64,000 nt of DNA from Desulfomonilia bacterium (GCA_036567785.1 DATCTV010000034.1:102468-166467); one strand, 5' to 3'; positions 29,649 through 50,649 are shown, counted from the first letter of the stretch. The notes: a model not told the origin generated them from the sequence alone. Numbers and translations are program-made.

Positions 29649-30677
29649 TTAATAATAAAAACCATCATCGCCATCATCATCCGGCAACATATTGCCATGC
29701 TCACGGTTCCACTCCTCCTTATGCTCCATAATGATCTGAAACTGGTTGCGCAGGTCAATGAGCTCCTTCGCCCAGAAATTTTCGTTGCCCCAGTCCGGAT
29801 GGTCGCGTTTGAAGTCAAGGTCGTCACCCTGGCGGGCGCACCAGGCCAGATAATAGATTATACGCATGAAGCGCAGAGGCTCGATGAGCTTAAGCGTCGA
29901 ATAGTCGAATTCCCTGAATTCTTCATAACCGCTCATTATGAGATCGATTTCACGCTTCGCCCTTGTATAGTGATCAGGCAGCATCAGCCAAAGGTCATGC
30001 ACGGGTGGCCCTGTCATCATGTCGTCAAGGTCGATCACCATGAGTCCTTCGCCGGGCCTTTCAATCAGGTTTCCCCTGTGGCAGTCACCGTGAATACGTA
30101 TATATTCTACGCCGCCAAAGAGCCCGGTAATTTCATCCAGAATCTGAAAGCAAAGCTCCTTGAATGCGTCTCTCAACTCGGGGTGAATGAATCCGCCTTC
30201 AAGCAGAAATTCTATATCCGCCCGTGTGGATATGCCGGGATGGAGCCTTACCCTGTGAGGCGCATCTTTTTTTGCGCCTACGGCATGTATCCTGCCTATA
30301 ATACTCCCGACCCTGACCCAGTCTTCATCGTTATTTATCTCGAACATCCTCCCGCCCTTTTTGGGAAATACTGCAAGGTTGATGCCTTCGATATTCATAA
30401 GAGTCGATCCGTTAGAGAGCTTAATGGGCGCCACAACAGGGATTTCACCGGCATCGCAGTCGGCGATAAAGGCATGCTCTTCTTCTATAGCCTCCCTGCT
30501 CCACCTGCCGGGGCGGTAGAATTTTATCACAAAGCGCTCCGTATCCATTGCCTGCAATTCATAGACACGGTTGATATAGCTCGGGTGCTGTATCAGGAGG
30601 CCGGTAAACCTCTTGCCGACAGCTTTTTCGGCAGAATTAATAATCAGGTCCGGTGTCAGGACCTTAAAGTCTGTCAT
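29649..30677 (-). CDS. srkA: Stress-response Ser/Thr kinase SrkA (YihE/RdoA)
   Basis: Colinear with E. coli YihE: FVIKFYRPGRW, IHGDCHRGNL catalytic loop, DLDD, and the LIEPLRFMRIIYYLAW C-lobe. Confidence 0.75.
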   Translation of the reverse strand: MTDFKVLTPDLIINSAEKAVGKRFTGLLIQHPSYINRVYELQAMDTERFVIKFYRPGRWSREAIEEEHAFIADCDAGEIPVVAPIKLSNGSTLMNIEGINLAVFPKKGGRMFEINNDEDWVRVGSIIGRIHAVGAKKDAPHRVRLHPGISTRADIEFLLEGGFIHPELRDAFKELCFQILDEITGLFGGVEYIRIHGDCHRGNLIERPGEGLMVIDLDDMMTGPPVHDLWLMLPDHYTRAKREIDLIMSGYEEFREFDYSTLKLIEPLRFMRIIYYLAWCARQGDDLDFKRDHPDWGNENFWAKELIDLRNQFQIIMEHKEEWNREHGNMLPDDDGDDGFYY

Positions 30678-30749: not shown

Positions 30750-31829
30750 TCAGGATTCCGCACCAAAATATCTGGAAAAATTCATCAGCATATCGAGATT
30801 ACCCTCGGCTTTGTATTTTCCCTCGATGAATGCCGTCCCTCCGTCCACCTTCCCGAACATTATATCCATCCACAGTTCAAAAGGTGTACTGACGATGAGA
30901 TCAGGTTTGATAAAAGCGATGTCTTCCGAGGTCTCAAGTGTGCCGTTTTCAATATGCAGCATGCATTCCCTTTTAGCTTCGCCGGTGAATATGAACTGAA
31001 TATCAGCCTTAACACCAGCCGCTGATTCAGGTTTGAAGGCTATTCGCATGATGGCCAGAAATTCCGGGATATTTTCCGCCCTGGGGATAAGTTTCTTTTC
31101 CGCGGCTTCCTTTACTGTCACGCCTTCCTTTATGCAGGTCTTCCACCACATGTTGGCAAGGAGCTGGAATGTCTCTTTGTCGATAAGAGGCTGCGTGATC
31201 CTTTTCATTATTCCCTCGGATACCGACTTATTTAGAATTATCTCCCGGCCCGCCTCTTTCAATGCATCAAAAATATCCGCCTTTATTTTTCCGAATGCGG
31301 AAGAGGCGAGCGTTTCGGCGCCAGGCCTGTAAATTTCAGCGATCAGGTCTTTTTTGTAGATATATCTAAGCCAGGAAGAAAGCTGGTCAAAAATACCCGG
31401 ATCGGGAAATCCCGCAACCGAAAGGGCCACGACCATTGGGATATTGCACCTCAGAGGGTGGGTAGATCTGCCGTTTTTTTCTATCATGAAAGGTTCGGCC
31501 ATAGGAAGCGTGCGGTCAATGAACGTCTTCATTCCGGCCGTGACCGAGTAAAAATAAAGGGGAGAAGCAAAAATAACGATGTCGGAGCTAATATATTTCG
31601 GGAACAGCTCAGCGGTCATATCGTCTTTGTGGATACATTTGCCCGGGGTTTTCGTCCAGCATGTATAACAGCCGATGCAGTTATGAATTTTTCTGTTCCT
31701 GAGATACACGACCTCGACATCGGCAGAGGCGTCTCTCATTCCCTGGACAAGAGGCTCGAGCAGCATTTCGGTCTTGCTTTGACCTCCGCCCCTAGGGCTT
31801 GAACTGATCGCCAGAACTTTCATGACCAC
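30750..31829 (-). CDS. Flavodoxin-like NAD(P)H-dependent FMN reductase / iron-sulfur flavoprotein-like protein with C-terminal SCP2 domain
   Basis: N-terminus KVLAISSSPRGGG…CIGCYTCW…C (flavodoxin fold plus Cys cluster). The C-terminal ~100 aa resemble SCP-2 sterol-carrier domains. Confidence 0.6.
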   Translation of the reverse strand: MVMKVLAISSSPRGGGQSKTEMLLEPLVQGMRDASADVEVVYLRNRKIHNCIGCYTCWTKTPGKCIHKDDMTAELFPKYISSDIVIFASPLYFYSVTAGMKTFIDRTLPMAEPFMIEKNGRSTHPLRCNIPMVVALSVAGFPDPGIFDQLSSWLRYIYKKDLIAEIYRPGAETLASSAFGKIKADIFDALKEAGREIILNKSVSEGIMKRITQPLIDKETFQLLANMWWKTCIKEGVTVKEAAEKKLIPRAENIPEFLAIMRIAFKPESAAGVKADIQFIFTGEAKRECMLHIENGTLETSEDIAFIKPDLIVSTPFELWMDIMFGKVDGGTAFIEGKYKAEGNLDMLMNFSRYFGAES

Positions 31830-32047: not shown

Positions 32048-32296
32048 ATGGAAAAAAAGGAAATATTTGATATCATCAAAGAATATTTCATCAGCCAGTT
32101 TGAAATTCCGGAGGATAAAATAATAATGGAGGCTCTCCTCAAGGATGACCTGGGGCTGGACAGCATTGACGCTCTCGATATGATAGGAATGCTTGAAGCA
32201 AGACTCAATATGGAAATAGAGGGAGAAGAACTCAAACACATCCGTACTGTCAGCGATGTTGTCGAATTTATCCTGAAAAAACTTCAAACCCGGTAA
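32048..32296 (+). CDS. Acyl carrier protein (dedicated, cluster-associated)
   Basis: 82 aa with a phosphopantetheine attachment site DLGLDSID in a four-helix ACP layout. AGGAG RBS 7 nt upstream of the ATG at 32048. The track TTG at 32018 is an in-frame upstream extension. Confidence 0.85.
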   Translation: MEKKEIFDIIKEYFISQFEIPEDKIIMEALLKDDLGLDSIDALDMIGMLEARLNMEIEGEELKHIRTVSDVVEFILKKLQTR

Positions 32297-32299
32297 AAA

Positions 32300-32674
32300 A
32301 TGGCGGAATTACCCTGGCATACCCTGCTCGGCTTTGAATTGAACAAAGACGGCATTACCGGGCAATTCAATATACCGGCAGATTCTTTATGGTTTGAAGG
32401 ACATTTCCCCGATGAACCCGTCCTGCCAGGAGTATCGATGCTCTGCATGATAAAGGAGCTTATCAGCAAAGCAAATCCGGTCATCAATATAACAGGCCTC
32501 AGGCGCATCCGTTTCAGACAGCTTGTCCATGAAAATGAACTCCTGAATGTGAAAATAACATGGGAAAAAGGACACGGTTCAAAATCCGCTTCCTTTGATA
32601 TTACCAGCAATGGAAACCTTATCAGTTCAGGATTTATCGAGACAGACGGACCTGTCGGGAACTTGAAATCATGA
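32300..32674 (+). CDS. Hotdog-fold 3-hydroxyacyl-ACP dehydratase, FabZ/ApeI-like
   Basis: HFPDEPVLPGV matches the FabZ catalytic-His motif (HFPGxPxMPGV). 124 aa, 3 nt after the ACP gene. Confidence 0.75.
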   Translation: MAELPWHTLLGFELNKDGITGQFNIPADSLWFEGHFPDEPVLPGVSMLCMIKELISKANPVINITGLRRIRFRQLVHENELLNVKITWEKGHGSKSASFDITSNGNLISSGFIETDGPVGNLKS

Positions 32675-33081
32675 ATATGGACATCGAATCCTACATGCCC
32701 CACAGGGGCCGGATGAAACTGATAGAAGATATTCTTGAATCGGACGAGAACAGCTGCAAAGCCATTGCCGTCCCGAAACTTACCTGGCCCTTTCAGAGGC
32801 ACGAGGGTATTGATCCACTGGTGATTATCGAGCTTATTGCACAGACAACCAGCGCATACGTGGGCTGGTGCAGACGCAATGAAAAAATGATGGGTGGAGC
32901 AGGGTTTCTTGTGGGTATTCGCAGTGCCGGGATAGGCCTTACCTGTCTGCCTCTAGACAGCCCTGTTTTTATTTCATGCAAGAGAATGCTGGATATGGAC
33001 AACTATGGTGTATTTGAAGGCCGTGTTTTTATCAACGACACCACATATGGTACATCCGTCATTCAAGTATACAATCCATGA
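32671..33081 (+). CDS. Second hotdog-fold dehydratase, FabZ/ApeP-like
   Basis: YMPHRGRMKLIEDIL and ELIAQTTSAY resemble the FabZ N-terminal and central-helix motifs. Start overlaps the previous gene (ATGA). Confidence 0.55.
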   Translation: MNMDIESYMPHRGRMKLIEDILESDENSCKAIAVPKLTWPFQRHEGIDPLVIIELIAQTTSAYVGWCRRNEKMMGGAGFLVGIRSAGIGLTCLPLDSPVFISCKRMLDMDNYGVFEGRVFINDTTYGTSVIQVYNP

Positions 33082-33668
33082 AGGTAATTTTTTTTTCAGC
33101 GTGTATCCTTCTCTGTTCTTATCTTCTCGGTTCGATAAATTTTACTGTAATCATTTTCAGGCTGCTCGGACTTGATGACCCCAGAATGAAGTTTTCAGGT
33201 AATCCCGGGACAACAAATGTCTACAGGATAGCAGGGCCTTTCTGGGCGGCGCTGGTTCTTGTCCTCGATATCAGCCGTGCAGGACTGGTATCCATAGCAG
33301 CGCTTAAATTGCTTCCTGCTCAGGAAATTGCACTTGCAGGTTTTTTTCTTGTGCTCGGAAACAGATATCCCTGCTTCCATGGTTTTAAAGGCGGCAAAGG
33401 CGTGGCCAATTATATGGGTTTTGTCCTGTTCATAATACCTGTCTGGGGAATAATCGTAACCCTGCTCTGGCCTTTGATATACAAACTTGTAAAAATTACT
33501 TTCATACCTTCTTTTGTCATAATTACCCTGATGGGAATCGGCTTATCGTTGCATTTTCAGTTCAATCCACTTTTCACAGCCATAACAGCAGCAACCATTC
33601 TGCTGATTTTCGCCGGCCACAGAAAAAACGTCAGGCAATACATTTCAAGGGAAAAAAGACTTGATTAA
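33078..33668 (+). CDS. plsY: Acyl-phosphate:glycerol-3-phosphate acyltransferase PlsY family (cluster-embedded copy)
   Basis: PlsY motifs SGNPGTTN and FKGGKGVA in a five-TM 196-aa protein. ATGA overlap with the upstream dehydratase gene. Confidence 0.8.
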   Translation: MKVIFFSACILLCSYLLGSINFTVIIFRLLGLDDPRMKFSGNPGTTNVYRIAGPFWAALVLVLDISRAGLVSIAALKLLPAQEIALAGFFLVLGNRYPCFHGFKGGKGVANYMGFVLFIIPVWGIIVTLLWPLIYKLVKITFIPSFVIITLMGIGLSLHFQFNPLFTAITAATILLIFAGHRKNVRQYISREKRLD

Positions 33669-33725
33669 ATTTTTTTAAACAGCATTATAGTTTGTGAAAA
33701 AAAGATAAAGAAAGGAGACCTGCTT

Positions 33726-34148
33726 ATGAAAAAACTAATGTTAATTATGTTTGTTGTCCCGGCATTCTTTATCATATCATGCGCCAGCACCCTTCAGGTT
33801 ACAGATATCGACTCCTGGCTCACTACAAAAGCAGCCGGAGTAAATGCAACAGCGAATATTACGGGAACCTGGAAAGACGCACTTAATGAGACCGACTCCT
33901 TCATGAGCTGGGGACAGGGTGAATGGACCCAGACTGGAAACATCATAACAGGCAATATCAGCTCTTATGTAATTAAAGGTATCATGTCCGGAAAAACTGT
34001 TTATATAGTCCTTTATAACGGGGCCAAAGTAGATTACACAGCCAAGCTTGAACTGAAGAATAACAATGAACTATATGGTAATTACTACAGCTCCCGTGAC
34101 CCCGGTCAGACAAAACCTACCCCGATGAGCTTCAAGAAAGTCAAATAA
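33726..34148 (+). CDS. Hypothetical lipoprotein
   Basis: Signal peptide with lipobox IISC. 140 aa, no recognisable domain. Confidence 0.45.
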   Translation: MKKLMLIMFVVPAFFIISCASTLQVTDIDSWLTTKAAGVNATANITGTWKDALNETDSFMSWGQGEWTQTGNIITGNISSYVIKGIMSGKTVYIVLYNGAKVDYTAKLELKNNNELYGNYYSSRDPGQTKPTPMSFKKVK

Positions 34149-34167
34149 TACGTTTACTTGAACATCT

Positions 34168-34206
34168 GACACCGGCGGTCTTGAATCTTTATCGGTTGCC
34201 GGTGTC
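34168..34206. terminator. Stem-loop between convergent lipoprotein genes (GACACCGGC-21nt-GCCGGTGTC)
   Basis: 9-bp perfect inverted repeat in the 40-nt convergent gap. It overlaps the stop codon of the minus-strand gene. Confidence 0.35.
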
Positions 34207-34842
34207 TTCTGTCTGAATCAGTTCAAAGCTCAGTGTGTATCCGCTGACACCTTTTATTTGAAGCGTCATCTTTGAAAACAGGCCGTCTATTACAGGCGGC
34301 ATAAGGATGGCCTGCCTGATGATCTTTGAATGCCCTTTTAATTCCCTGATAACGGTTTTTTCCTTTTCTTTTTGAAATTCCTTCCTCATATCCATTTTTT
34401 CCCAAAGACAATAACAGGAGCCATCCTCATTATTTGAAGCTCTTTTTATATTTCCGTCAGGCTTAATGAAAAGAAAACGGATATCATCTGCAAGCCCTGA
34501 CGCAAAATCCTTTCTGTTAAGAGGAGGCATCCCCGAATTAATCTTTATTTCCTGGCCTGTAGATTCTGCATCCAGAAGCGTAATGCCTTCTGGAGACAAT
34601 AGAACCACTTTAATGAAGCCGGTATCAGGATAAATTTCCGTCACCCCTATAAACGTCTGATAACCGCCGAAAGGAAGATCTGCCTCGATTTTATGAACAG
34701 CCCGGAATGGTTTTGCCGGAAAAACCGACAGACACTCTTTTTCCGTTCCGGGATTTATTTCTATTTCTGTAACTTGTTCCCTGTGTGCACATTGAAGAAG
34801 CATGCAGCAGAGAGGCAATACAAACAAAACGGCTTTTTTCAT
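34189..34842 (-). CDS. Hypothetical lipoprotein (possibly the DUF-type lipoprotein found in APE-like clusters)
   Basis: Signal peptide with lipobox LLQC. 217 aa, unknown fold. Confidence 0.45.
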   Translation of the reverse strand: MKKAVLFVLPLCCMLLQCAHREQVTEIEINPGTEKECLSVFPAKPFRAVHKIEADLPFGGYQTFIGVTEIYPDTGFIKVVLLSPEGITLLDAESTGQEIKINSGMPPLNRKDFASGLADDIRFLFIKPDGNIKRASNNEDGSCYCLWEKMDMRKEFQKEKEKTVIRELKGHSKIIRQAILMPPVIDGLFSKMTLQIKGVSGYTLSFELIQTEDTGNR

Positions 34843-35450
34843 CTAACTTTAGTGAATATGCCATCAGGCAAAGGTTTGTTGATCTCTGTGTTATCGAACT
34901 CCAGGTATGTCGTTGCTCCCTGAACCTCTATAATCTCGATAGCCGAAATTACGCCCGCATCTTTTGAAAAAGTGATTACAACTTTTTTGATAAAACCTTT
35001 GATTGTTGCATTTTGAGGGGTCAGCTCCACCTTGCCTTCAATAATATCCGCCCTGAAATCCTTGTTATTATTGAATTTGCCGGCAAACCACTCGGTAATC
35101 TGGCCTACAACAATGCGGACGGCTTCGAGTCTTGCGCTGGAATCTTCAACGAAGCTTCCTTCCTTGAAGATGAAGCGTTTTACATTGCCCTTGTCTACAA
35201 GGAGAATGCTCTTTACAGGCTCTGTGTATTCCCACCTGATCGAATCGGGAGATAGGTAATAAAGCCGTCCTTTGCTGATGAGGGGCCTGCTCAGTATCCT
35301 GATGTCCTTTTTCTGTGTGAAGGCTCCTGATATGGACTTTACCTGAGACATGTTCTTTTCGATAGATTCCCAGCTCAGCGTCCACCCGGAAAGGACAAAC
35401 GAAATGAAAAATAGAAACAGGACAAAGGCCTTTGAAGCATGCCTCATCAA
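34839..35450 (-). CDS. LolA-like outer-membrane lipoprotein carrier family protein
   Basis: Signal peptide plus ~180-aa beta-rich body with a LolA/LolB-like pattern. Overlaps the downstream lipoprotein gene by 4 nt. Confidence 0.5.
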   Translation of the reverse strand: MMRHASKAFVLFLFFISFVLSGWTLSWESIEKNMSQVKSISGAFTQKKDIRILSRPLISKGRLYYLSPDSIRWEYTEPVKSILLVDKGNVKRFIFKEGSFVEDSSARLEAVRIVVGQITEWFAGKFNNNKDFRADIIEGKVELTPQNATIKGFIKKVVITFSKDAGVISAIEIIEVQGATTYLEFDNTEINKPLPDGIFTKVR

Positions 35451-36169
35451 ATCATGCCCCCGTTAACAGAGAGAACCTGCCCCGTTATATACGATGCATC
35501 ATCGGAGCATAAAAATCCGACGGCTTTTGCAACCTCTTCCGGTTTCCCCACACGGCCCATCGGAATGTGCTGGACAACAGCCTCAATGGGCAGATCCTTT
35601 ATCATTTCTGTTTCGATGAGACCGGGCGCCACGGCGTTTACCCTTATGCCCAGCTTTGCCATCTCCTTTGCAAGAGCCTTGCAGGCTCCGATCAGTCCCG
35701 CTTTGGCTGCGGAATAATTGACCTGCCCGGCATTACCGATAATACCGGAGATGGATGCAATGGCTATTATATTACCATTTTTCTGCCGGATCATGCTTCT
35801 GAGAACCGGCTTTGTGACGTTGTAAAAACCCCTGAGAGATGTGTCTATGACGTTTTCCCAGCTCTGCCTCGATGTCATCGGGAAGAGGCCGTCACTGGTA
35901 ATTCCTGCATTGTTTATAAGTACCTTTATGTATTTGTGCCTGTCCAGAAGGTCTTTTATGGCAGCAGCTGTTTCATCACCGTTTGCGACATCGAACTGCA
36001 CTGTTTCGCCGTCTCCTCCCGACTCTTTTATTTCAGCAAGCGCAGCTTCCGCCGCATCCTTCCGCGAGTGGTAGTTTATGATGACATAATATCCCTTTGC
36101 CGCAAGCTCCATTGATATCGCCCTGCCTATGCCCCGGCCTCCTCCTGTAACAAGCGCTATTTCTGTCAT
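35447..36169 (-). CDS. fabG: 3-oxoacyl-ACP reductase, FabG-like SDR
   Basis: TGGGRGIGRAI cofactor motif, NAG, catalytic S…YxxxK (YSAAKAG), 240 aa. Confidence 0.8.
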   Translation of the reverse strand: MTEIALVTGGGRGIGRAISMELAAKGYYVIINYHSRKDAAEAALAEIKESGGDGETVQFDVANGDETAAAIKDLLDRHKYIKVLINNAGITSDGLFPMTSRQSWENVIDTSLRGFYNVTKPVLRSMIRQKNGNIIAIASISGIIGNAGQVNYSAAKAGLIGACKALAKEMAKLGIRVNAVAPGLIETEMIKDLPIEAVVQHIPMGRVGKPEEVAKAVGFLCSDDASYITGQVLSVNGGMI

Positions 36170-36963
36170 AATTCCTCCATCACTTTCTTGCCAGTAAGCT
36201 TATCAAGGGATAAAAAATCAAGCCCCTTTTTCCTTATGCCCGTAATTGTCTCCTCCATCTGTGCGATAAGTTCCGAAACAGACACGCCTCCTGAGGGCGC
36301 CCTGTCATGAAGCATGATGATGCCGCCATCCCTGGCGCCTTTTAAAATATTACGGCCTATATTGCCGATTCGGCGGTTGCCGAAATCATACCCCCTTATG
36401 CCGAACATCACACAAAAAAGGCCAAGACGGGAAAGAATAGGCTCCAGTTTCGGATTGACAATACCTGCAGGTGGCCTGAACGTATATGCAGTTATACCGA
36501 ACCCTTTAAGCACATCCTGACAGGATGCAATCTCATTATTCAGCCTGGCAGAAGTTTTCAGCATAATTAACGTGTCATGGTTCATGGTGTGGTTTCCCAG
36601 CGTATGGCCGTTATCAAGTATAAGTTTTATCAGTTCCGGATGAGCGGCTGCTTTTTTGCCGACAATAAAAAAATGGGCCTTAATCCCTTGTTTTCTTAAC
36701 ATCTCGATGACAGACGGGGTGCTTGCGGGATCAGGGCCGTCATCGAATGTGAGAGCTACCCCGTGAGAACCCGGTGCACCCCTCGTGATACAAGGCAGGA
36801 ACATCTGCCACTCTGGAAAAAAAGGCGATGCCATGGAAACAATGACGAACAAGGAAAGCGGAATCAGGGCATAAACAGGACTGATCATTGAGACAATGAT
36901 GGATGTAATAATGGCTGCAATCCCGATAAAAAATATTCGAGGGATTTTTCCGCTATTCATTTC
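36166..36963 (-). CDS. Polysaccharide deacetylase (NodB homology / CE4) with N-terminal TM anchor
   Basis: NodB motifs TFDDGP and HTLGNHTMNHD. Start chosen at the ATG at 36963, which leaves an 11-nt overlap with the LPLAT gene. The track start at 37032 would give an 80-nt overlap. Confidence 0.7.
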   Translation of the reverse strand, partial: EMNSGKIPRIFFIGIAAIITSIIVSMISPVYALIPLSLFVIVSMASPFFPEWQMFLPCITRGAPGSHGVALTFDDGPDPASTPSVIEMLRKQGIKAHFFIVGKKAAAHPELIKLILDNGHTLGNHTMNHDTLIMLKTSARLNNEIASCQDVLKGFGITAYTFRPPAGIVNPKLEPILSRLGLFCVMFGIRGYDFGNRRIGNIGRNILKGARDGGIIMLHDRAPSGGVSVSELIAQMEETITGIRKKGLDFLSLDKLTGKKVMEEL

Positions 36964-37843
36964 CAGCCTTTTCAATGAGGAAAGGCTCGAAGCAGTACCA
37001 GTGCTCGGGATGTCTGCGTACCACGTCCTCATACATTTTAAGATACTTCACCGCCGCCTCTTGTATGACCTTTTCCTTATTTGACCGGTTTATTGAATCG
37101 AGAAAAATGGGCTGGTTATATTCGATCCGGTATTTTGCCCGGCCTGTCCTGATTATGAAAAAAACGAAGAGCGGAACCTGAAGCGTATATGCAAGTGCGA
37201 ACGGCGAATATGGAAGCCTTACCATATGATCTAAAAATTCAAGTTTCATTGATTTCTGACTGTCGCTCCAGACCCTGTCCCCTGTCATTGAAACAAAGCC
37301 CTCGTTTTTAAGATATCGAAGTACTTCAAACACGTTAAGAGGTGCACTCTCGTTCTCGTCAACAGAAATGATCTTTATGCCCTTGCCCGAAATTTCAGTT
37401 TTCATCTGTGTTTCAATCTTCTGCGCCTGCTTTGAGCCAACGAAGAGCGCCACATTTATCCCTAAATCGGAAAGCTTTCTGGCTGCAAGTTCCCAGTTGC
37501 CTATATGAGACATTAGAAGAATGCCCCTTTTTCCGCTTTGATGGGCATTATATATATGCTCCCATCCTATACTCTCACAGGGGAATGCCCCTGTTGCCTC
37601 GACTATGAGCCTGTCGGTGAATACTGTTGAAAAATGATGAAACTGACGCCATGCGCATAAAAGGTAATAAAACCCTGACCTGCCGGGAAAGAGTGCACGG
37701 TAAAATTTCATGCTCAATCTGACCTGCGGTCTTGGCATAAGAAAATAGCATGTTGTGATGAACCATGTGAGAATTTCCGCAATGTATATCCCGGTCCTGG
37801 TGCCTGCGAGAAAATGCATGATTTTATAAAATAATACCTTCAT
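36953..37843 (-). CDS. Lysophospholipid acyltransferase (LPLAT / HtrB-MsbB lipid A acyltransferase-like)
   Basis: N-terminal TM followed by the LPLAT core with a catalytic HxxxxE-type region (…LLMSHIGNWELAA…). 296 aa. Confidence 0.65.
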   Translation of the reverse strand: MKVLFYKIMHFLAGTRTGIYIAEILTWFITTCYFLMPRPQVRLSMKFYRALFPGRSGFYYLLCAWRQFHHFSTVFTDRLIVEATGAFPCESIGWEHIYNAHQSGKRGILLMSHIGNWELAARKLSDLGINVALFVGSKQAQKIETQMKTEISGKGIKIISVDENESAPLNVFEVLRYLKNEGFVSMTGDRVWSDSQKSMKLEFLDHMVRLPYSPFALAYTLQVPLFVFFIIRTGRAKYRIEYNQPIFLDSINRSNKEKVIQEAAVKYLKMYEDVVRRHPEHWYCFEPFLIEKAGNE

Positions 37844-40800
37844 GTAAGGAAATCCCGCCCGCTCACGGGCTCAGCCACAAACCATGTTTCTTCTCTTTGC
37901 TGTGCAGTAGCTTCACTGAGTACGAGTTTATAACCGGTCTCTTGGAGCATGAAAGAAATATCTTCCTTCGAACGCAGCCATATGGCGTTCCTTGCAACCT
38001 TGTTTCTCAGGATTTCAAGCCATCTTTCCCACGGGACTTTCTTTTCCGATGGTATCGTCACCCGCAGAATGAGTCTCCCGTCAGCAGCAAGCCTTGATTT
38101 TATTTCCAGGAGGATTTTCTTAAGATCCGTCTCGGGGATATAATGTATCATGTCAAGCATAAGCGCCGTGTCTATGGTTTCGGGATACGAGTCAAACGCC
38201 TGCGCAGTTGAAACATGAACCTCATCATCATCGCCTAGAACTCTGCCAGCAATCCTGATGCGCTCCCTGTCAGGGTCCAGAGCGCAAATCCTCATGCCGG
38301 GGAACAGGGTTTTCAGCCATACACCCTGAACGCCATATCCGCAGCCTATGTCCAGAACCGTACCGGTACTTTTCATGAAACCGGCGAGCTTAGGAAACAT
38401 CGGGTCGAACTTCATCTTGAACCTGGCAAACATGCGGGCATAGACTTCCAGGTGTCTGAAGCGGGACATTACCAGTTTTATATGTTCAGGAGATCCCGGC
38501 TGGATGTCCTTCGCGGCAGGGAATGGAATCTGTCTGAATACACGCTTTAAAAGAGGGGGCAGAAGAAGGCATGTCCCGGCATATGTATACAATATGCCCA
38601 GTGTCGCAGAAAGGCCGGCGCTCGACAACAGGGGATGTCTGGCCAGGGCAAGGACTGAAAACCCCGTCAGAATTGCCGCTGCCGCCATAAGGACCGACGC
38701 CCTTATTGTTTTCATCGAAGGGTGTTTCTCATCGATGTAACGCTGTTGCATCCTCACAATATATATTGAAAACACTATTCCCAGACCAAGCACTACCACC
38801 GCCAGCATCAGCCCCGGGATATCAATAGGATGGCCTATCAGGGTAAACGTGCCGAATGTGCAGATAAGGGAAAACGCCACCGGCAAAAGAGTCAGGAAAG
38901 CAAGGGTTATGTCGAGGTAATAAAAGAGAAGCAGAAGTGCGAGCGCACTTCCCGCCGTGATGAGCGTTTTCATGAATATCCCGTGCACAAGGCCGGACAG
39001 CCTCTGGGTGAAAAGACCATAATCAAGCATGCTGCCGAGATTTTTACTATGGATTTCATCGAAAACAGGCTGGGCCTTATAGTCAGGTCCTGGCATGGCG
39101 GTGCTGATCAGCAGGTATTTTTTCCCCGGATCCTCCGTGAAAAGTCCCAGGAATTCATATGAACCGACAGTAAGGTCCGTCCCTGTTATTACGGGATTCT
39201 CAAGTAGTTCCATGAACGGCTCAAATGCATCTGCATTAAAACCGTATTCTTCTGAGGCCGGGATTATCTCTGATTTCAGTGCTTTTACCCTGTCTTTGTT
39301 CCAGAAGTCTTTCCAGTCCTGAAGGTTTAAGCTCGAAAGATATGACGAAGGAATAATATCGGAGAGTGTAAAGGATGAAGCCAGGGTTTTCTTTCCAACC
39401 TGCTCTTTGAAGAAAAGCGACATCCTGTCGGATATGTTTCTCAGGCCTTCGATGGAATCCCCTTCGGACAGAAAATATATCCTGCTGAAGACATCCCCCC
39501 AGACGGATTTGAATGTCTCTTCAGCCTTTATGGTTACAGGACCGACCGCATTCATCCTGTTCAAATCGGCGTTGAAGACCGGTTTTGCAAGAGCGGCCAT
39601 GGTGATGCCGAAGACTGCGGCCAGGATAAATCCGGTCCATCCCGGCTTGAGGCTCAGAAATTCAGCGATCTTCTCAACAGGCAGCAGGGCGCTTCTTTTC
39701 GCAGGCGGCATGCTTATGAATATTCGCGGCTGCAGGGTATGGACAAATACAAATGTAAATACGGCTCCGAGTGCGGCAAACATGCCGACATCGGCCATGA
39801 TCCTGAATCCGCTGAAGACAAGCGCCAGAAATGCCCCGGCAGTCGTGAACATGGCCATGAGTTCCACCGAGCGTATCTCATGCGAGGTCTCTTTGCCTGA
39901 TGTCATGGAAGTCCTGTCCAGAAAAAGGAAAAAGGATATCCCGCTGTCCACGGTAAATGAAAGAATCGCTCCGCCAAAGCCAAGGGCCAGAAGCGACATT
40001 TCGGGCCTGATGATGGACAGGACAAACATGGCGGCGGTTGTGCCAGCCGCGCCGGGGAAAAAGGAAAGCAGCCCGATATAGGGTCTCGGAAAGCAAGTAA
40101 TCAGGATAAAGGCTATGCCAAGAGTTGATACTATGGCAGCGAATATTACATCTCTTTTTGCGGTTTTTTCATTATCCATGGCAGAGCGGTAAGAGCCTAT
40201 CGCATTGAGCTTTATTTTAGGCGTCCTGTTCCTTAAAGCATCTGATTCAAATTCATTCGAGATCCTGTTGAAAAGCTCGGATATCCGTCTTGAAAACTGA
40301 GTATCCATACCGGGATTCCTTGTATGGGCGACAACAAGGCAGTGCCTGCCGTCGGAACTGAATATCTGACCCTTATAGACCAAGGATCCTTTTACCTCCA
40401 GGAAATTTCTGAGCCTTTCAAGGATTATAAACCTCAACCCCAGCGGGTCTTTTGAGATCATATCCGACTGGCCTATACCTTCAAATCCGCCCAGGAGTTC
40501 TATGTCGGCATTCAGGCTATTCCTGATTGCCTCCTTGTTAATCAGCGGAAATATGCGTTCATTGAGATCCTGAGCCGAAAAGCTTCCGGGAAGATTGTCC
40601 GCAACCATATTTAATATGCGGGGCAAAGCACTGCCGGGATCATCTATCCCGATCTTTTCAAACAGGCCCGATTTCTTCATCTCGTTTTCAAGACGCAAGG
40701 CATATGAAGCAAGCAGGTCCTTGTCAGGTAAGGCCACACCTTCAAGGCAAAGGTCCACGGCCACCTTGTCCGGAAGCCTGTAGCGGTCGAATATCTTTTT

Positions 40801-40953
40801 GGCGTCTGATATTACCGGGTCGTAAGACGGCACTGATGACAATATGTCCGAACTCATCCTCAAATGAGACTGGGTCCACAGGCTCATCAAAATAAGCCCT
40901 GCGATGGTAAAAATCAGAAGCCTAAGATTGATGTTGTATCCCCGGAATTTCAT
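37840..40953 (-). CDS. MMPL/RND-type lipid exporter fused to a C-terminal class I SAM-dependent methyltransferase
   Basis: Two 6-TM bundles each preceded by a large periplasmic loop (MMPL topology). The C-terminal ~240 aa carry SAM motif I VLDIGCGYG and the downstream MTase motifs. Confidence 0.7.
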   Translation of the reverse strand: MKFRGYNINLRLLIFTIAGLILMSLWTQSHLRMSSDILSSVPSYDPVISDAKKIFDRYRLPDKVAVDLCLEGVALPDKDLLASYALRLENEMKKSGLFEKIGIDDPGSALPRILNMVADNLPGSFSAQDLNERIFPLINKEAIRNSLNADIELLGGFEGIGQSDMISKDPLGLRFIILERLRNFLEVKGSLVYKGQIFSSDGRHCLVVAHTRNPGMDTQFSRRISELFNRISNEFESDALRNRTPKIKLNAIGSYRSAMDNEKTAKRDVIFAAIVSTLGIAFILITCFPRPYIGLLSFFPGAAGTTAAMFVLSIIRPEMSLLALGFGGAILSFTVDSGISFFLFLDRTSMTSGKETSHEIRSVELMAMFTTAGAFLALVFSGFRIMADVGMFAALGAVFTFVFVHTLQPRIFISMPPAKRSALLPVEKIAEFLSLKPGWTGFILAAVFGITMAALAKPVFNADLNRMNAVGPVTIKAEETFKSVWGDVFSRIYFLSEGDSIEGLRNISDRMSLFFKEQVGKKTLASSFTLSDIIPSSYLSSLNLQDWKDFWNKDRVKALKSEIIPASEEYGFNADAFEPFMELLENPVITGTDLTVGSYEFLGLFTEDPGKKYLLISTAMPGPDYKAQPVFDEIHSKNLGSMLDYGLFTQRLSGLVHGIFMKTLITAGSALALLLLFYYLDITLAFLTLLPVAFSLICTFGTFTLIGHPIDIPGLMLAVVVLGLGIVFSIYIVRMQQRYIDEKHPSMKTIRASVLMAAAAILTGFSVLALARHPLLSSAGLSATLGILYTYAGTCLLLPPLLKRVFRQIPFPAAKDIQPGSPEHIKLVMSRFRHLEVYARMFARFKMKFDPMFPKLAGFMKSTGTVLDIGCGYGVQGVWLKTLFPGMRICALDPDRERIRIAGRVLGDDDEVHVSTAQAFDSYPETIDTALMLDMIHYIPETDLKKILLEIKSRLAADGRLILRVTIPSEKKVPWERWLEILRNKVARNAIWLRSKEDISFMLQETGYKLVLSEATAQQREETWFVAEPVSGRDFLT

Positions 40954-41672
40954 GACATACTCATACGCTTTCTTGTCGCCTGCGGAAAAACAAGCCTCAT
41001 GACAATCAGGCGAGTAAAGGTTGCAGAGTTCCTCAGGAAATCCACAAAAGGCCTGAAGTGAGAAACCCTCTTTCCGTTTTCAGGGTAGACGACACTGACA
41101 GGAACCTCATAGACCGGTATTTTATGCCAGTTCGCCAATACAAGAATTTCCACCTCAAACTGAAACCTGCTGGCCCTGCTTTTAAGGCTCAATATTTCCT
41201 TTACAGGGTAAATCCTGAACCCGCTCTGTGTATCTGTCAGAACGGGCCCCCCTGAAAGTTTTACCCAGAAGTTTGAAAATTTCCTTCCGAATCTGCTTGT
41301 CCAGGGAATACTTTCATCATCGAACATGTTTTTTCTGGCGCCTATGACAACAGGCCGTGCCCCCTCTTGTATTGATTCCATCAATCCTACGGCGTCACCA
41401 GGCACATGCTGCCCGTCTGCATCTATCGTTACGGCAAAATCGGCAATTTTAGATGCCTCTTTCAGGCCCGAGCGTATAGCCTCACCTTTGCCGATATTTC
41501 TTCCATGCCTGATAACCGTTATATTGTCATACCGTGCTAAAACTTCTGTTATCCCGTCAGTCGATCCGTCATCAACGACTATGACCGGCAGACCGAGTTC
41601 AATGCATCCGTCAAGCACAGAGGCCAGGGTTGCGGCATGGTTGTATACGGGGATGACAAAAGAGAACTGCAT
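40950..41672 (-). CDS. Family 2 glycosyltransferase (polyprenyl-phosphate sugar transferase-like)
   Basis: FSFVIPVYN…VDDGSTDG…(DxD)…RNIGKG: GT2 / GT-A fold motifs, 240 aa. First gene of a seven-gene minus-strand operon. Confidence 0.8.
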   Translation of the reverse strand: MQFSFVIPVYNHAATLASVLDGCIELGLPVIVVDDGSTDGITEVLARYDNITVIRHGRNIGKGEAIRSGLKEASKIADFAVTIDADGQHVPGDAVGLMESIQEGARPVVIGARKNMFDDESIPWTSRFGRKFSNFWVKLSGGPVLTDTQSGFRIYPVKEILSLKSRASRFQFEVEILVLANWHKIPVYEVPVSVVYPENGKRVSHFRPFVDFLRNSATFTRLIVMRLVFPQATRKRMSMS

Positions 41673-41886
41673 CCATCGGGTGTAAGATAAACGGCAGTAT
41701 CATGTCAATGCTCATTAGCTCTTGTGGGACAACAATATCATTGTTCGCCTTATTAATTTTTCCTGCTTACTTTTTATATAAATTAATAATATAATATTAA
41801 TGTACAATTAATACCTTTTCAGCGATCCTGTTTTTTAGGTTCAGTAGTCAGGCCACAGTTTTTAATTTTATCTTTGAGGAGTGAAC

Positions 41887-43809
41887 ATGAAAAACCTGAA
41901 TTTGAAGATTTACACCCTGCCAGGTTGTTTGGTCGTATTGTTCCTTATTCTGCCGGGATGCAAATGGCAGGCCCCCGTCCTCAATGATCTTTCCGTAAAG
42001 GCAGTCAGTTCCAGGACAATAACCCTTGCACAGCCTGTGCTCATTAAAGCGGGCTATCCCGAGGCTTCGGTCAATGCCTTTATCGGGCCTTCCGGACAGA
42101 TATCAGTCGACGGGTCAGATGTCAGCGGTTCAGCCGAAGGGCCGGTGGATGTCTCAAAAGGTAATTACCAGTTTAAAGGCCTGAACCCAGGGTCAAGCTA
42201 TGATATCATTGTTGTAGCAAAGAATATTTCCGGCTGTTCAGTTAAAAGCCTTGCCGGCATCAAGCCTCATATCCCTCAGATCGATCCGGCCTCATATCAG
42301 AGCATAGGCACGGATGAAATGGGTTTGTTCCGATGGTATCTGGCTCTTGCCGACGATCCCATTTCCGATTTCAGCAAGATTCCGTCATATGATGACAAGC
42401 AGACCGAGGGTTCTTCATACAGGTATTCGCTGGCATTCATGACCTATTTTCTTATTCTTGAGCAGTACCATAAGCTTCCTGCATGCGCAGAGATCATCAA
42501 GCCGCGCATGGACCGGCTGATCCAGAAAATACTTGACAGGCAGGTCTGGACCTACTGGGCCAATACAAGCCAGGGCGTGGAACTTCTTGAGCCTAAGATG
42601 GACAGGCCATACCCTGAACAGCACGACCCCGTCGCAGACCAGAACATTATGTATTCCGGCCACGTGGGGATGATGATCGCCTCTTATGAAATGCTCTACC
42701 GCGACATGAAATGGAGCGAGCCCGGTTCGATCATCTTCAAGTGGAGCGACACCGAACAGTACGTCTATGACAACCACTCGCTGCAGAAGGTCATGTACGA
42801 CCAGATGGCAAACAACCCGTATCACGGAATCGCATGCGAGCCTAATGCGGTATTCCCGGAGTGCAACCAGCACCCGATCATTTCGTTCATGCTGTACGAC
42901 CATGTACACGGCACCAGTCTGGCAGAAGCCCGCAACCTGTTCCTGGACTTTTTCCTCAAACGCGGGATGATCAATCCTCTGACTCACGAGGTCTGCGTGA
43001 ACTACCTTGTTAAGCAGAATATAGTCGTCAGTCAGGAAAACCCCAATTTCGGGAATCTGGCTTCTCTTTATACGATTCCCCAGGTACTTGCCGGTAAGCT
43101 GATTCTGCATGCGGCAGCCGCCGACGGCTGGACGGGCACATTCATGCATGCCTGGCAACCGGACTTCATTGAGCGCCATTATCCGTACCAGAAAAAACTG
43201 CATGTTCTTGATCCTGACAGCATGACCGCGCATCTTGACGGAAAAAAGGAGCAGGCCACCAACCAGCTTGCAACACCGTTTTTCGCCATGCTGGCCGCCG
43301 AGGTGGGTGATACCGACACCAGAGACGGTCTCATTCAATGGTGCAAGGACTTCTACAAGCCGGTCTGGGAAAACGGGATGCTTCACTACCCGGCAAAAGA
43401 GCCTGTCAACATCAACACTTCGGGTGAGTTCACGCCGTACGGTAACGCAACCACTGGCGCACTGATAGCGGTCGCCATGGCAAATTCTAAAAATGGGGTC
43501 TGGTCTCTCGTCAACAGGCCTTTCACTGACAGGGAATTCAACGCCCCCAAAGTATCAGGGGTTGACTTCCCCAATGCCCTGCTAAAGCGCGCGATCTATG
43601 ACTTCGAGAAGGAGGCGCTCATAATCACTACAGATGGCGGAGCCATTAAAAGCGGCAATACGTCATTCAGCGTGACGCAGCTTGATCCTGCCAGGTCATG
43701 GAGACTCCTAATGGACGGTGTTTGTGTTGGAGAATATACAGGGGTCAGCTCCGTCTCAATATCCGTTGCACTTGATTCTCAGCACGATTTTGTACTGATA
43801 GCGGAATAG
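41887..43809 (+). CDS. Lipoprotein: FN3-like domain plus large domain resembling the linalool dehydratase/isomerase (LDI) family, paralog 1
   Basis: Lipobox LPGC. About 100-aa FN3-like module (…YQFKGLNPGSSYDIIVVAKN…). The following ~450-aa domain has NIMYSGH (Met-x3-His), GIACEPNAVFPEC (Cys-x8-Cys) and RYSLAF, which I recall as the LDI active-site layout. The ATG at 41887 has a GAGGAG RBS. Confidence 0.55.
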   Translation: MKNLNLKIYTLPGCLVVLFLILPGCKWQAPVLNDLSVKAVSSRTITLAQPVLIKAGYPEASVNAFIGPSGQISVDGSDVSGSAEGPVDVSKGNYQFKGLNPGSSYDIIVVAKNISGCSVKSLAGIKPHIPQIDPASYQSIGTDEMGLFRWYLALADDPISDFSKIPSYDDKQTEGSSYRYSLAFMTYFLILEQYHKLPACAEIIKPRMDRLIQKILDRQVWTYWANTSQGVELLEPKMDRPYPEQHDPVADQNIMYSGHVGMMIASYEMLYRDMKWSEPGSIIFKWSDTEQYVYDNHSLQKVMYDQMANNPYHGIACEPNAVFPECNQHPIISFMLYDHVHGTSLAEARNLFLDFFLKRGMINPLTHEVCVNYLVKQNIVVSQENPNFGNLASLYTIPQVLAGKLILHAAAADGWTGTFMHAWQPDFIERHYPYQKKLHVLDPDSMTAHLDGKKEQATNQLATPFFAMLAAEVGDTDTRDGLIQWCKDFYKPVWENGMLHYPAKEPVNINTSGEFTPYGNATTGALIAVAMANSKNGVWSLVNRPFTDREFNAPKVSGVDFPNALLKRAIYDFEKEALIITTDGGAIKSGNTSFSVTQLDPARSWRLLMDGVCVGEYTGVSSVSISVALDSQHDFVLIAE

Positions 43810-43834
43810 AGAACCTGACGGGAGTTGGCAAACT

Positions 43835-45775: not shown

Positions 45776-45829
45776 GACACACAAAAAATTATAGACAGAC
45801 GATTTCAGTCCAGACTTAGGAGGAAGGGT

Positions 45830-47752: not shown

Positions 47753-47762
47753 GGAGGTAAAA

Positions 47763-48185
47763 ATGAAGAAGTCTCAAATCTGGGCACTTGTAATTATTCT
47801 GCTGGGGGTGGTCGTCATACTTATCCCATGGCAGCTTTTCCCTGTCTGCGGAGTGGGTCGCTATGCACCGCCTGCCGGGGCTATGCCCCGGATGCACGGC
47901 TGTGACGGCACCCTTAAAGCCGCTACTTATCTGGGTATTATAACAATTTGCGCCGGGCTGCTGCCGCTATTTTTCAAACAGCACCTTGCCGGACTTATCT
48001 CGGCAGTTTCAACAGCAGTGATCGGCGTCCTTCTCATACTCTTCCCGACAGTCATAACAGGAGTCTGCAAGGTGCCGACAATGCCATGTGTCTTCGGGAC
48101 AAAACCTGCCCTCATAATGGCGGGTATAGTATTGATACTGGTGGCTGGCTCTTTCGGCATCATGCTGATGAAAAAGAAAAAGTAA
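47763..48185 (+). CDS. Small 4-TM integral membrane protein with conserved cysteines
   Basis: 140 aa with four hydrophobic helices and six Cys (CGVG, HGCDG, CAG, CKVPTMPC). 10 nt after paralog 3. Its stop overlaps the start of the permease gene (TAATG). Confidence 0.45.
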   Translation: MKKSQIWALVIILLGVVVILIPWQLFPVCGVGRYAPPAGAMPRMHGCDGTLKAATYLGIITICAGLLPLFFKQHLAGLISAVSTAVIGVLLILFPTVITGVCKVPTMPCVFGTKPALIMAGIVLILVAGSFGIMLMKKKK

Positions 48186-49393: not shown

Positions 49394-50076
49394 TAATCCT
49401 TAACGGGGTCTCAAAACTCTATGGTTCCGGAGGCGGTGAAATCCGTGCCGTGGATGACGTTTCTCTTGAGGTTAAAGAAGGCGAGTTCCTTGTTCTCATC
49501 GGCCATTCCGGAAGCGGTAAAACCACACTCCTTAACCTCATAGCCGGTATGACGCGTCCGGACACGGGACGAATAGAAATAGCCGGACGGGATATTCTCG
49601 GCATGAGTGATGCCGAAACGGCACATATGAGGGCTTCGGTCATCGGTTTTGTCTTTCAGTTCCAGAGCATGATTTCAACGCTCAATGCACTGGATAATGT
49701 CAGGCTCCCGTCGCTCTTCCGCAGACACAGATCAGAGAAGAAAGAGGCATTCGAAATGCTTGACCGGGTCGGTCTGGCCGGCAGGGAACATGCATATGCA
49801 CACGAGCTTTCACTTGGTCAGCAGCGCCGTGTCGGTATTGCACGGGCCCTGTTCAGCAGGCCTTCGCTGCTGCTCTGCGATGAACCGACAGGAGACCTCG
49901 ACCCTGAAACAGAACTGGCGATCATGGGTTTGATCTCAGGGGCGAACAGGGACGGTGCTACCATTGTCATGGCCACGCATAACCATGACCTCTGCTCTTA
50001 TGCAAACCGTATCCTGTGCATGGACCACGGCCGGATTTCCTCGGTTGAGCCCGGGACAGAACATGCGATTAAATAA
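49390..50076 (+). CDS. ABC transporter ATP-binding protein (LolD/MacB-type)
   Basis: Walker A GHSGSGKTT, signature LSLGQQRRV, Walker B LLLCDEPT, 228 aa. ATGA overlap with the permease gene. Confidence 0.9.
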   Translation: MIILNGVSKLYGSGGGEIRAVDDVSLEVKEGEFLVLIGHSGSGKTTLLNLIAGMTRPDTGRIEIAGRDILGMSDAETAHMRASVIGFVFQFQSMISTLNALDNVRLPSLFRRHRSEKKEAFEMLDRVGLAGREHAYAHELSLGQQRRVGIARALFSRPSLLLCDEPTGDLDPETELAIMGLISGANRDGATIVMATHNHDLCSYANRILCMDHGRISSVEPGTEHAIK

Positions 50077-50524: not shown

Positions 50525-50649
50525 CTGAAGTATCTCGAAAAATGCGCCTGGCAGTATCCGGGCTTATTATAAAACAGATCGTTCCTCTGGACAAATGTTG
50601 AACACAACATGACGCCAATCCTAAAACATCATCTTCAATCAACAGCCTG

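Follow-up and report, generated by a model that had tools for sequence, protein, structure and literature searches.

A Ketosynthase-Free Lipid Gene Block in an Uncultured Desulfomonilia Bacterium Is Very Probably the Tailoring and Export Half of a Split Aryl Polyene-Type Cluster

The 64,000-nucleotide stretch DATCTV010000034.1:102468-166467 of Desulfomonilia bacterium GCA_036567785.1, termed the window in this article, contains at positions 32048-41672 a block of twelve genes that encode, among others, an acyl carrier protein (ACP), a ketoreductase (KR), two dehydratases (DHs), acyltransferases, a glycosyltransferase, and lipid export proteins. Our analysis indicates that this block is, very probably, the tailoring, lipid-assembly, and export half of a two-part cluster of the aryl polyene (APE) type, which combines type II polyketide synthase and fatty acid synthase (FAS-II) logic. 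A first-pass annotation had described the block as a system without any ketosynthase (KS) that borrows the KSs of housekeeping FAS-II and represents a distinct product class. However, a dedicated condensing half, termed the KS half below, is present in the same genome outside the window and comprises an ApeR-like KS, an ApeO-ApeC fusion, an ACP, ligases, a tyrosine ammonia-lyase (TAL), and a thioesterase. The block appeared to lack a KS because the limits of the window hide this second half.

Complementarity of the two halves

The strongest argument for a single pathway is the way in which the two loci complete each other. All proteins were compared by BLASTP and profiles with the reference ape cluster (ApeC to ApeR) of Escherichia coli CFT073. 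The window half matches ApeF, ApeI, ApeP, ApeQ, ApeL, ApeM, and both domains of ApeJ, and the KS half matches ApeR (45% identity), ApeO (41%) and ApeC (27%), which are fused, ApeK (35%), ApeH (26%), ApeD (30%), and ApeE (38%, for the ACP as read in a relative described below). The Ape set is complete only with both loci combined, and the halves are therefore considered to form one pathway. The features that characterize APE clusters are spread over both loci: two ACPs (ApeE and ApeF) are found across the two halves, and the window half provides the KR ApeQ with the DHs ApeI and ApeP, the exporter ApeM with the LolA-like ApeL, and the glycosyltransferase/acyltransferase ApeJ in the form of two genes. 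The KS and chain length factor (CLF) proteins ApeR, ApeO, and ApeC are absent from the 64-kb window and found at the genome level only, and in relatives they occur in linkage with the accessory genes. As homologues of the KR and DHs are lacking in the KS half, it needs those of the window.

This dependence bears on the alternative that the block is an autonomous KS-free pathway, in which housekeeping FAS-II KSs build the chain on the dedicated ACP and the product class is distinct from APEs. Such a pathway would agree with the fact that KS, CLF, thioesterase, and TAL are all missing from the window, and that the block has been parted from the KS half in this lineage yet is intact in at least three genomes; in addition, FabF could conceivably pair with the dedicated ACP, KR, and two DHs of the block. 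We nevertheless regard this alternative as highly improbable, since intact ApeR-like and ApeO-ApeC-like KSs are present in the same genome and in a sister genome with the same split, the KS half depends on the enzymes of the window, the halves are contiguous in one relative and usually at most 10 kb apart across the family, and the genes for PlsY and the NodB deacetylase occur also in KS-containing versions of the cluster.

The window was searched by six-frame tblastn (E ≤ 0.01) with KS, CLF, TAL, thioesterase, FakA, PlsC, and ligase sequences from relatives and E. coli, and no KS, CLF, TAL, hotdog thioesterase, FakA, or PlsC was detected. A Pfam search that covered the open reading frames (ORFs) of at least 200 amino acids (aa) outside the block, with five smaller ORFs left out, likewise revealed no ketoacyl-synthase, thioesterase, or aromatic ammonia-lyase. 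The earlier statement that KS/CLF and thioesterase genes are absent near the block is thus correct within the 64-kb window. The tblastn result for the ligase queries was negative as well. The ORF at 5152-6630 was unmatched in Pfam, carries an SSGTTG motif, and had NCBIfam matches below cut-off only; it encodes a distant adenylate-forming ligase of the F390-synthetase/PaaK/FlxY kind. Together with a phosphopantetheinyl transferase (PPTase), it had been proposed to supply starter loading and ACP activation from 4.5-6.6 kb. The Sfp-type PPTase was confirmed by Pfam and NCBIfam at 4496-5155, about 27 kb upstream of the block, and could possibly form part of a starter-loading system, whereas the ligase is unnecessary as a starter loader, as two dedicated ligases are located in the KS half.

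The KS half in the same genome

The fusion of an MMPL-type exporter with a methyltransferase (MMPL-MT) encoded in the window is 100% identical over 1037 aa to HEY9161207.1, which is encoded on a 392,564-bp contig of a Desulfomonilia metagenome-assembled genome (MAG). A search was conducted with the KS of a relative in which MMPL-MT is 76% identical (the 76% relative), and the 90%-identity cluster of this KS includes HEY9161277.1 and the protein P0245, the latter from a 271,344-bp contig; for the KS homologues P0122 and P0125 the context was taken from gene tables only. HEY9161277.1 is an ApeR-like KS that is 70 accession steps away from HEY9161207.1, and a length of 392,564 bp is recorded for both MAG contigs. 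The sample of the window itself, SRR2059973, in which the window DNA is present as a Logan contig, also contains a contig of 47 kb with the same KS. The 47-kb contig shares no overlap with the window and is of similar composition, with a GC content of 0.480 compared to 0.485 and a tetranucleotide correlation of r=0.964, as opposed to values of 0.68-0.81 for unrelated deltaproteobacterial loci. If accession order is taken as gene order on the 392-kb contig, the KS half would be located about 70 genes from the block in the same genome.

On the 47-kb contig, the KS half contains genes for the ApeR-like KS (410 aa), a TAL, two ligases, an ApeK-like thioesterase, a FakA-DegV fusion protein, an ApeD-like PlsC, an ApeO-ApeC KS/CLF fusion (716 aa), two B12-dependent radical S-adenosylmethionine (B12-rSAM) enzymes, and an ApeE-like ACP. 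The best models for the TAL are of the BagA/FlxA type, below cut-off, with histidine ammonia-lyase (hutH) scoring almost equally. The ligases match PaaK/FlxY and 4-coumarate-ligase models, again below cut-off, and the FakA match of the 574-aa FakA-DegV protein is below the equivalog cut-off. One of the B12-rSAM enzymes (positions 16161-17510 of the 47-kb contig) exceeds the cut-off of TIGR04072 (rSAM_ladder_B12), with 391.2 bits compared to 360. A gene for an alpha-L-rhamnosidase (935-939 aa) is found within the KS half, between a 129-aa ORF and the ApeH-like ligase, both on the contig of the window's sample (11644-14463) and in the relative with 86% identity (11654-14461), and is missing at this place in the 76% relative.

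Two related MAGs inform on the arrangement of the halves. In the 86%-identical MAG GCA_964513375.1 (the 86% relative), the block (about 154.5-158.4 kb) and the KS half (about 245.4-262.5 kb) are located on the same 271-kb contig, with a gap of about 87 kb beyond the gene for the family 2 glycosyltransferase (GT2). In the 76% relative, both halves are contiguous on a 927-kb contig, on which the same 12-gene block is present in the same order. The run beyond its GT2 gene begins with a CbiA/ParA-like gene and continues with genes for a PaaK-like ligase, an aromatic ammonia-lyase, a 4HBT thioesterase, a Dak2-DegV (FakA-FakB) fusion, a PlsC-type acyltransferase, a 410-aa KS, a 124-aa ORF, an AMP-ligase, a B12-rSAM enzyme, a 717-aa double KS, a second B12-rSAM enzyme, and an ACP. 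The split is specific to the small clade of the window and arose by genome rearrangement, rather than being merely an effect of the window edge. The first-pass annotation had considered that the block might be part of a canonical APE cluster cut by the window, with KS/CLF genes immediately adjacent; the present result is in the spirit of that idea, except that the KS half is distant through rearrangement.

A further observation on rearrangement concerns a trio of genes for an aminotransferase, a phosphoglucomutase, and an NAD-epimerase, which is located in the window at 8522-12486 and followed by lon at 12572-14932. On a JGI contig with a 92%-identical copy of the KS of the 76% relative, a trio of the same gene types abuts the ACP end of the KS half. 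That the trio abuts the KS half there and lon in the window suggests more than one relocation of the KS half in this lineage.

Repeated rearrangement around both halves raises the question of whether the window half could be a decoupled remnant that has lost its role, is decaying, or serves general lipid export. Also in line with this idea are the insertion of three Ldi genes and an ABC transporter beside the GT2 gene and that of the rhamnosidase gene within the KS half. However, all 12 ORFs of the block are intact with their catalytic motifs, and the operon overlaps are preserved; compared to the 86% relative with the same split, gene order has been kept at 71-97% protein identity; and the KS half is intact in the window's genome as well as in that relative. 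We consider that a remnant is improbable in the extreme and retain the assignment of the block as the functional partner of the KS half.

Gene content of the block

The twelve genes, their families, and their arrangement in two facing operons, as initially annotated, were borne out by an ORF listing, Pfam, and NCBIfam, which placed all 12 ORFs of 32048-41672 at the expected coordinates. The operons are tight and convergent, with five genes on the plus strand and seven on the minus strand, and adjacent genes share 1-8 nt at 8 of the 10 intra-operon junctions. The catalytic motifs were read as intact throughout the block. The proposed link to the accessory genes of APE and flexirubin clusters also stands, with one-to-one matches to ApeF, ApeI, ApeP, ApeQ, ApeL, ApeM, and ApeJ of E. 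coli CFT073 and subthreshold matches to the LolA2, LolB2, and FlxB models.

The plus-strand operon starts with the gene for an ApeF-like ACP of 82 aa (32048-32296) that contains an LDSID motif with the serine for phosphopantetheine attachment, matches Pfam PP-binding, scores 69.5 bits with the NCBIfam ACP model PRK05350 (cut-off, 65), and shares 42% identity with E. coli ApeF (E = 4e-15). Two hotdog DHs follow. The first is ApeI-like (32300-32674), with a FabZ-type HFPDEPVLPG motif and a Pfam FabA score of 30.9 bits; its Pfam ApeI-like score of 27.0 bits is slightly below the cut-off of 28.5, and a profile of 15 homologues matched E. coli ApeI (E = 2.7e-14). The second is ApeP-like (32671-33081), exceeds the corresponding Pfam cut-off (28.1 compared to 27 bits), and has 30% identity with E. 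coli ApeP (E = 4.6e-12). The fourth gene (33078-33668) encodes a PlsY paralogue of the acyl-phosphate:glycerol-3-phosphate acyltransferase family (Pfam G3P_acyltransf, E = 1e-33) with intact GSINF, SGNPGTTN, and FKGGKGVA motifs. Its TIGR00023 score, 112.6 bits, is below the equivalog cut-off of 137.2 and hence not that of a housekeeping PlsY, which fits a divergent, cluster-tied paralogue. The operon ends with a gene for a predicted lipoprotein of 140 aa (33726-34148), which has a signal peptide with an IISC lipobox and no Pfam or NCBIfam matches; its conservation is limited to the close relatives L006-L008.

On the minus strand, positions 34189-34842 encode a secreted or lipid-anchored protein of 217 aa in the position of ApeN. 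It is weakly LolB2-like (NCBIfam LolB2_flexi, E = 9.7e-5, 22 bits with a cut-off of 60), and its single-sequence AlphaFold model has a mean pLDDT of 33.6. The LolA-like periplasmic lipid carrier (34839-35447; Pfam LolA, E = 1.4e-14) resembles ApeL and LolA2, with 100 bits for NCBIfam LolA2_flexi (cut-off, 125) and a profile match to ApeL at E = 1.2e-9. The 3-ketoacyl-ACP reductase (35447-36169; ApeQ/FlxB-like) has a YSAAK catalytic motif, matches Pfam adh_short_C2 (E = 3.7e-61), exceeds the cut-off of the NCBIfam FabG model (PRK05653.1-5; 316.5 compared to 273 bits) and not that of FlxB (316.8 compared to 340), and shares 46% identity with ApeQ of E. coli (E = 4.6e-71). The gene at 36166-36960 encodes a membrane-anchored CE4/NodB-type de-N-acetylase of 264 aa (Pfam Polysacc_deac_1, E = 5.8e-29), in which the TFDDGP, HTMNH, RPP, and LHD motifs are intact.

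The remaining three minus-strand genes relate to ApeJ and ApeM. The LpxL/PatA-type acyltransferase (36953-37843; Pfam Lip_A_acyltrans, E = 4.3e-13) has a phosphatidylinositol mannoside acyltransferase as its top NCBIfam match, below cut-off. It had been listed as an LPLAT (lysophospholipid acyltransferase), and the acyltransferase assignment as such is correct; considered as ApeD, it gave no BLASTP match at E ≤ 0.01, whereas a profile of 59 homologues matched residues 262-551 of ApeJ (78 bits, E = 4.8e-25), so that it is the counterpart of the C-terminal domain of ApeJ and not of ApeD. The MMPL/RND-type lipid exporter (37840-40953) is ApeM-like (23% identity, E = 6.6e-8) and bears a C-terminal S-adenosylmethionine-dependent methyltransferase domain at about residues 855-1011 (Pfam MMPL and Methyltransf_23/12/25/11). 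The same fusion, at about 1020-1075 aa, is carried by nearly all of the best 120 of 191 homologues. The methyltransferase domain was considered as a counterpart of ApeB, and BLASTP returned no matches at E ≤ 0.01. The GT2 (40950-41672; Pfam Glycos_transf_2, E = 3.1e-22) is of the lipid-phosphate (DPM1/ArnC/PpgS) type, with PpgS, AglJ, and ArnC as top NCBIfam matches, all below cut-off; with 36% identity to residues 10-230 of ApeJ (E = 3e-36), it represents the equivalent of the ApeJ N-terminal domain.

Upstream of the block and divergent from the ACP operon, positions 30750-31829 of the minus strand encode an FMN-reductase/flavodoxin-like protein with a C-terminal SCP2 lipid-binding domain (Pfam FMN_red and SCP2). 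This gene adjoins the ACP gene also in L006, L007, and L008, and among the distant loci the acyltransferase gene has an FMN_red neighbor in L005 only; it is a possible, unproven member of the cluster. The next gene, at 29649-30677, encodes an APH-family phosphotransferase that is syntenic in close relatives. It matches PRK11768, a serine/threonine protein kinase family, with 319.7 bits (cut-off, 194), and was therefore rejected as a cluster member, being probably unrelated to the lipid cluster. Scans of 31.5-42.2 kb detected 23 promoter-like sites compared to 16.5±5.0 in shuffled sequences and 13 terminator-like sites compared to 12.0±3.4, in neither case an excess. Across the entire window, Rfam gave no matches at gathering thresholds, and a megablast of the cluster against plasmids was likewise negative.

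Conservation in relatives and in the wider family

Each of the twelve genes is retained in the block of three related MAGs, with protein identities of 61-97%. Close relatives of MMPL-MT occur in few MAGs, labeled "uncultured Bacteriovoracaceae" (86-88% identity) and "Desulfomonilia bacterium" (76%), and about 190 homologues with 36-43% identity belong mostly to MAGs of Syntrophales, Smithellaceae, and other Desulfobacterota. For the distant loci, counts refer to 35 loci with at least 8 kb on either side of the MMPL-MT gene. A KS is present at a distance of at most 10 kb from MMPL-MT in 28 of these, and 34 contain one or more markers of the condensing half (KS, CLF, TAL, FakA-DegV, or B12-rSAM). 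NodB homologues were found in 11 loci, PlsY homologues in 5, and a LolB2-like gene comes after the LolA gene in 11.

PlsY homologues with 44-48% identity, from one deltaproteobacterial MAG and from one metagenome contig whose protein is named Spirochaetota by its source, are encoded inside clusters with KSs, 4HBT, ACP, PlsC, B12-rSAM, PPTase, FakA-DegV, TAL, LolA, and KR. PlsY and NodB, which had been viewed as special signs of this locus, are thus recurrent parts of a KS-containing Desulfobacterota/Spirochaetota family and not marks of a KS-free pathway. In two distant relatives, L090 (8440-9975) and L091 (7659-9161), a protein of about 500 aa with an ACPS (PPTase) domain is encoded shortly upstream of the PlsY paralogue, and that of L091 is fused to a PS-DH domain. 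The Dak2 (FakA-like) and DegV (FakB-like) domains are fused in a protein of about 575 aa across L004, L005, L086-L088, and L090; its gene follows that of the 4HBT thioesterase in L004, L005, and L086-L088 and is located beside the TAL gene in L090.

Proposed pathway and product

From the gene content of both halves we infer the following substrates, order of steps, and product. The combination of a TAL with two aryl-acid-type ligases suggests a p-coumarate-type starter: tyrosine would be deaminated to p-coumarate by the TAL, and a ligase would load p-coumarate onto an ACP. The KS and the KS-CLF would then elongate the chain on the ApeE-like ACP, with the KR and the two DHs of the window converting each beta-keto group into a trans double bond, and the B12-rSAM enzymes would probably methylate or otherwise modify the chain. 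The thioesterase may free the acid, which FakA-DegV could convert to acyl-phosphate. According to PMC9136124 and PMC12594616, the Fak product is acyl-phosphate, which is the substrate of PlsY. The PlsY paralogue would transfer the acyl group from acyl-phosphate to glycerol-3-phosphate to give 1-acyl-glycerol-3-phosphate, and PlsC would add a second chain to give a phosphatidic acid, so that these four proteins would cover every step from the free acid to phosphatidic acid.

The GT2 would next attach an N-acetylhexosamine to the lipid phosphate, as in the glycerol-phosphate-N-acetylgalactosamine (GalNAc) APE lipids of Xenorhabdus. After deacetylation by NodB, the sugar would be acylated by the LpxL-type (ApeJ-C-like) acyltransferase, and the MMPL, LolA, and LolB-like proteins would carry the lipid to the outer membrane. 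In the Xenorhabdus APE lipids, the backbone is diacylglycerol-phosphate-GalNAc and the sugar carries the APE as an ester, and Xenorhabdus ApeJ was proposed for both glycosylation and sugar acylation. The product is likely to be an aryl-polyene glycerophospho-aminosugar lipid. The general idea of a glycerol-anchored, glycosylated, acylated, and methylated lipid exported by MMPL and LolA, already put forward in the first-pass annotation, matches this published structure. In the literature searched, we found no paper that links fatty acid kinase or PlsY to APE, flexirubin, or ladderane clusters, and none that joins Desulfomonilia and arylpolyene. A tentative proposal, which we consider possible though rather doubtful, is that the family makes an undescribed anaerobic variant of APE lipids, characterized by acyl-phosphate loading through Fak and PlsY, N-deacetylation and re-acylation of the sugar, and chain modification by B12-rSAM enzymes.

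B12-rSAM enzymes are most often methylases. In the KS half, the enzyme above the TIGR04072 cut-off and the second B12-rSAM enzyme may also be seen as a sign that the same split cluster makes a radical-SAM-modified polyunsaturated or otherwise unusual fatty-acyl lipid, of the kind proposed for the "ladderane-type" FASII-like clusters of Kuenenia and Desulfotalea, instead of an aryl polyene. Syntenic deltaproteobacterial clusters with rSAM enzymes, a phenylacetyl-CoA-ligase-like gene, a glycosyltransferase, and an MMPL-like protein have been described, and Desulfotalea yielded C31 polyunsaturated hydrocarbons and not ladderanes (PMC2649909). However, the KS half encodes a TAL and two aryl-acid-type ligases, a homologue was found for every core Ape enzyme, and the role of the B12-rSAM enzymes could simply be C-methylation of an aryl polyene in the absence of oxygen. 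A ladderane-type product therefore appears unlikely, and an APE-type product is preferred.

Several points weigh against the assignment to an APE-type cluster. The two halves form separate transcription units in this genome, with about 70 genes between them, and the assignment of the window to the 392-kb contig is deduced from the 100% protein match, the equal length of 392,564 bp, the common sample, and the similar composition. No similarity to ApeG (COG4648) or ApeN (DUF3261) was detected by BLAST or profiles; the profile of the LolB-like family gave no signal with ApeN (E = 0.33), and Pfam DUF3261 was likewise unmatched. The LolB2-like protein and the 140-aa lipoprotein hold the equivalent positions. 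Most matches to family models are below the curated cut-offs (LolA2/LolB2/FlxB, ApeI-like, PlsY with TIGR00023, and TAL versus hutH), and therefore the specific functions are not assured; in particular, the TAL scores nearly as high with histidine ammonia-lyase. Finally, the rSAM enzyme that passes TIGR04072 may modify the chain in ways unknown for APEs.

Neighboring genes in the window

The region beyond the GT2 gene, at 41881-50076, contains three tandem paralogues of about 640 aa of the Ldi (linalool dehydratase/isomerase) family, with 59-61% mutual identity, followed by genes for a MacB/LolCE-like FtsX permease and an ABC ATPase. An 8.4-kb stretch, 41719-50123, is missing between the GT2 gene and the STAS gene of the 86% MAG, which corresponds to either an insertion here or a deletion there. 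Positions 50198-53590 encode a partner-switching signaling module that consists of a STAS-domain protein (family assigned from the L002 orthologue), a dCache-HAMP-SpoIIE (PP2C) phosphatase, and an NMT1/THI5-like binding protein; in the 86% relative, this module directly adjoins the cluster GT2 gene. The genes at 54779-59511, conserved in the 86% relative, code for a DUF362/4Fe-4S protein, an MttB-superfamily methyltransferase, a 213-aa ORF for which B12 binding was assigned from the orthologous gene in L002, and an MFS_2 transporter, and look like a corrinoid methyltransferase module for quaternary amines or methylamines. The ORFs 61716-63512 (598 aa) and 17713-18411 (232 aa) had no Pfam match at E ≤ 0.001.

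Significance

The data provide an inventory of components for an APE-type family without a known product, which is widespread among anaerobic Desulfobacterota. In this family, the canonical Ape proteins are joined by an acyl-phosphate module (FakA-DegV, PlsY, and PlsC), B12-rSAM enzymes, and a sugar deacetylase. Should the acyl-phosphate route prove correct, it would account for the building of the glycerol anchor and give a role to the ApeK-type thioesterase. The split of ApeJ and the fusion of ApeO with ApeC indicate natural domain boundaries that can be used in work on APE-lipid assembly. The example also calls for caution, since mining limited to a window or a cluster, as in antiSMASH-style approaches, can miscall split clusters.

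Comparison with known systems

The closest parallels emerge with the APE clusters apeA-R of E. coli CFT073 and Xenorhabdus doucetiae, with which homologues of ApeC, ApeD, ApeE, ApeF, ApeH, ApeI, ApeJ, ApeK, ApeL, ApeM, ApeO, ApeP, ApeQ, and ApeR are shared. The logic is also shared, namely, a type II KS/CLF, two ACPs, a KR, two DHs, a GT2 with an acyltransferase, and export by MMPL and LolA proteins. In contrast to these clusters, the genes are here at two loci about 70 genes apart, ApeJ corresponds to two genes that flank the transporter gene, ApeO and ApeC are fused, and the methyltransferase is fused to MMPL and lacks BLAST similarity to ApeB. Extra components are the TAL, the PaaK-like ligase, FakA-DegV, PlsY, NodB, the two B12-rSAM enzymes, and the 140-aa lipoprotein.

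The flexirubin clusters of Bacteroidota share a FlxA-like TAL, a FlxY-like ligase, a FlxB-like KR, and LolA2- and LolB2-like carriers, which are the best or near-best NCBIfam matches. However, all equivalog models were missed, with 329 bits for FlxA and 95 bits for FlxY compared to cut-offs of 700 and 520, respectively, and the present cluster belongs to a different phylum and to an anaerobe. DarA and DarB dialkylresorcinol families were not encountered in the gene tables of the loci read, and no dedicated search was run for them.

To our knowledge, anammox bacteria are the only organisms in which ladderanes have been demonstrated. The "ladderane-type" FASII-like clusters of Kuenenia stuttgartiensis and Desulfotalea psychrophila have in common with the present system the TIGR04072 rSAM enzyme, which is encoded in the KS half and not in the window, divergent FabF paralogues, a phenylacetyl-CoA-ligase-like gene, a glycosyltransferase, an MMPL-like protein, and a polysaccharide-deacetylase-like gene. 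The last of these is found in Kuenenia only, outside the synteny with Desulfotalea (Rattray et al. 2009, PMC2649909). The TAL and the complete Ape-type set distinguish the present system, and Pfam families of phytoene-desaturase-like proteins or amine oxidases were found neither in the window nor in the KS-half loci L086-L088.

With the FakA/FakB-PlsY-PlsC route of Firmicutes, the combined cluster shares Dak2 (FakA) and DegV (FakB) domains, PlsY, and PlsC; here, however, FakA and DegV form one fused protein, which is embedded in a polyketide-type cluster beside a thioesterase. Another parallel concerns the polyprenyl-phosphate GalNAc synthase PpgS and ArnC, which are top NCBIfam matches of the GT2. 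ArnC is paired with the deacetylase ArnD in the Arn pathway, and the GT2 has a NodB-family deacetylase as a comparable partner. The scores of the GT2 (82 bits) are, however, far below the cut-offs (370), and by analogy with the APE lipids a phosphatidic-acid-like lipid is a more likely acceptor of the GT2 than polyprenyl phosphate.

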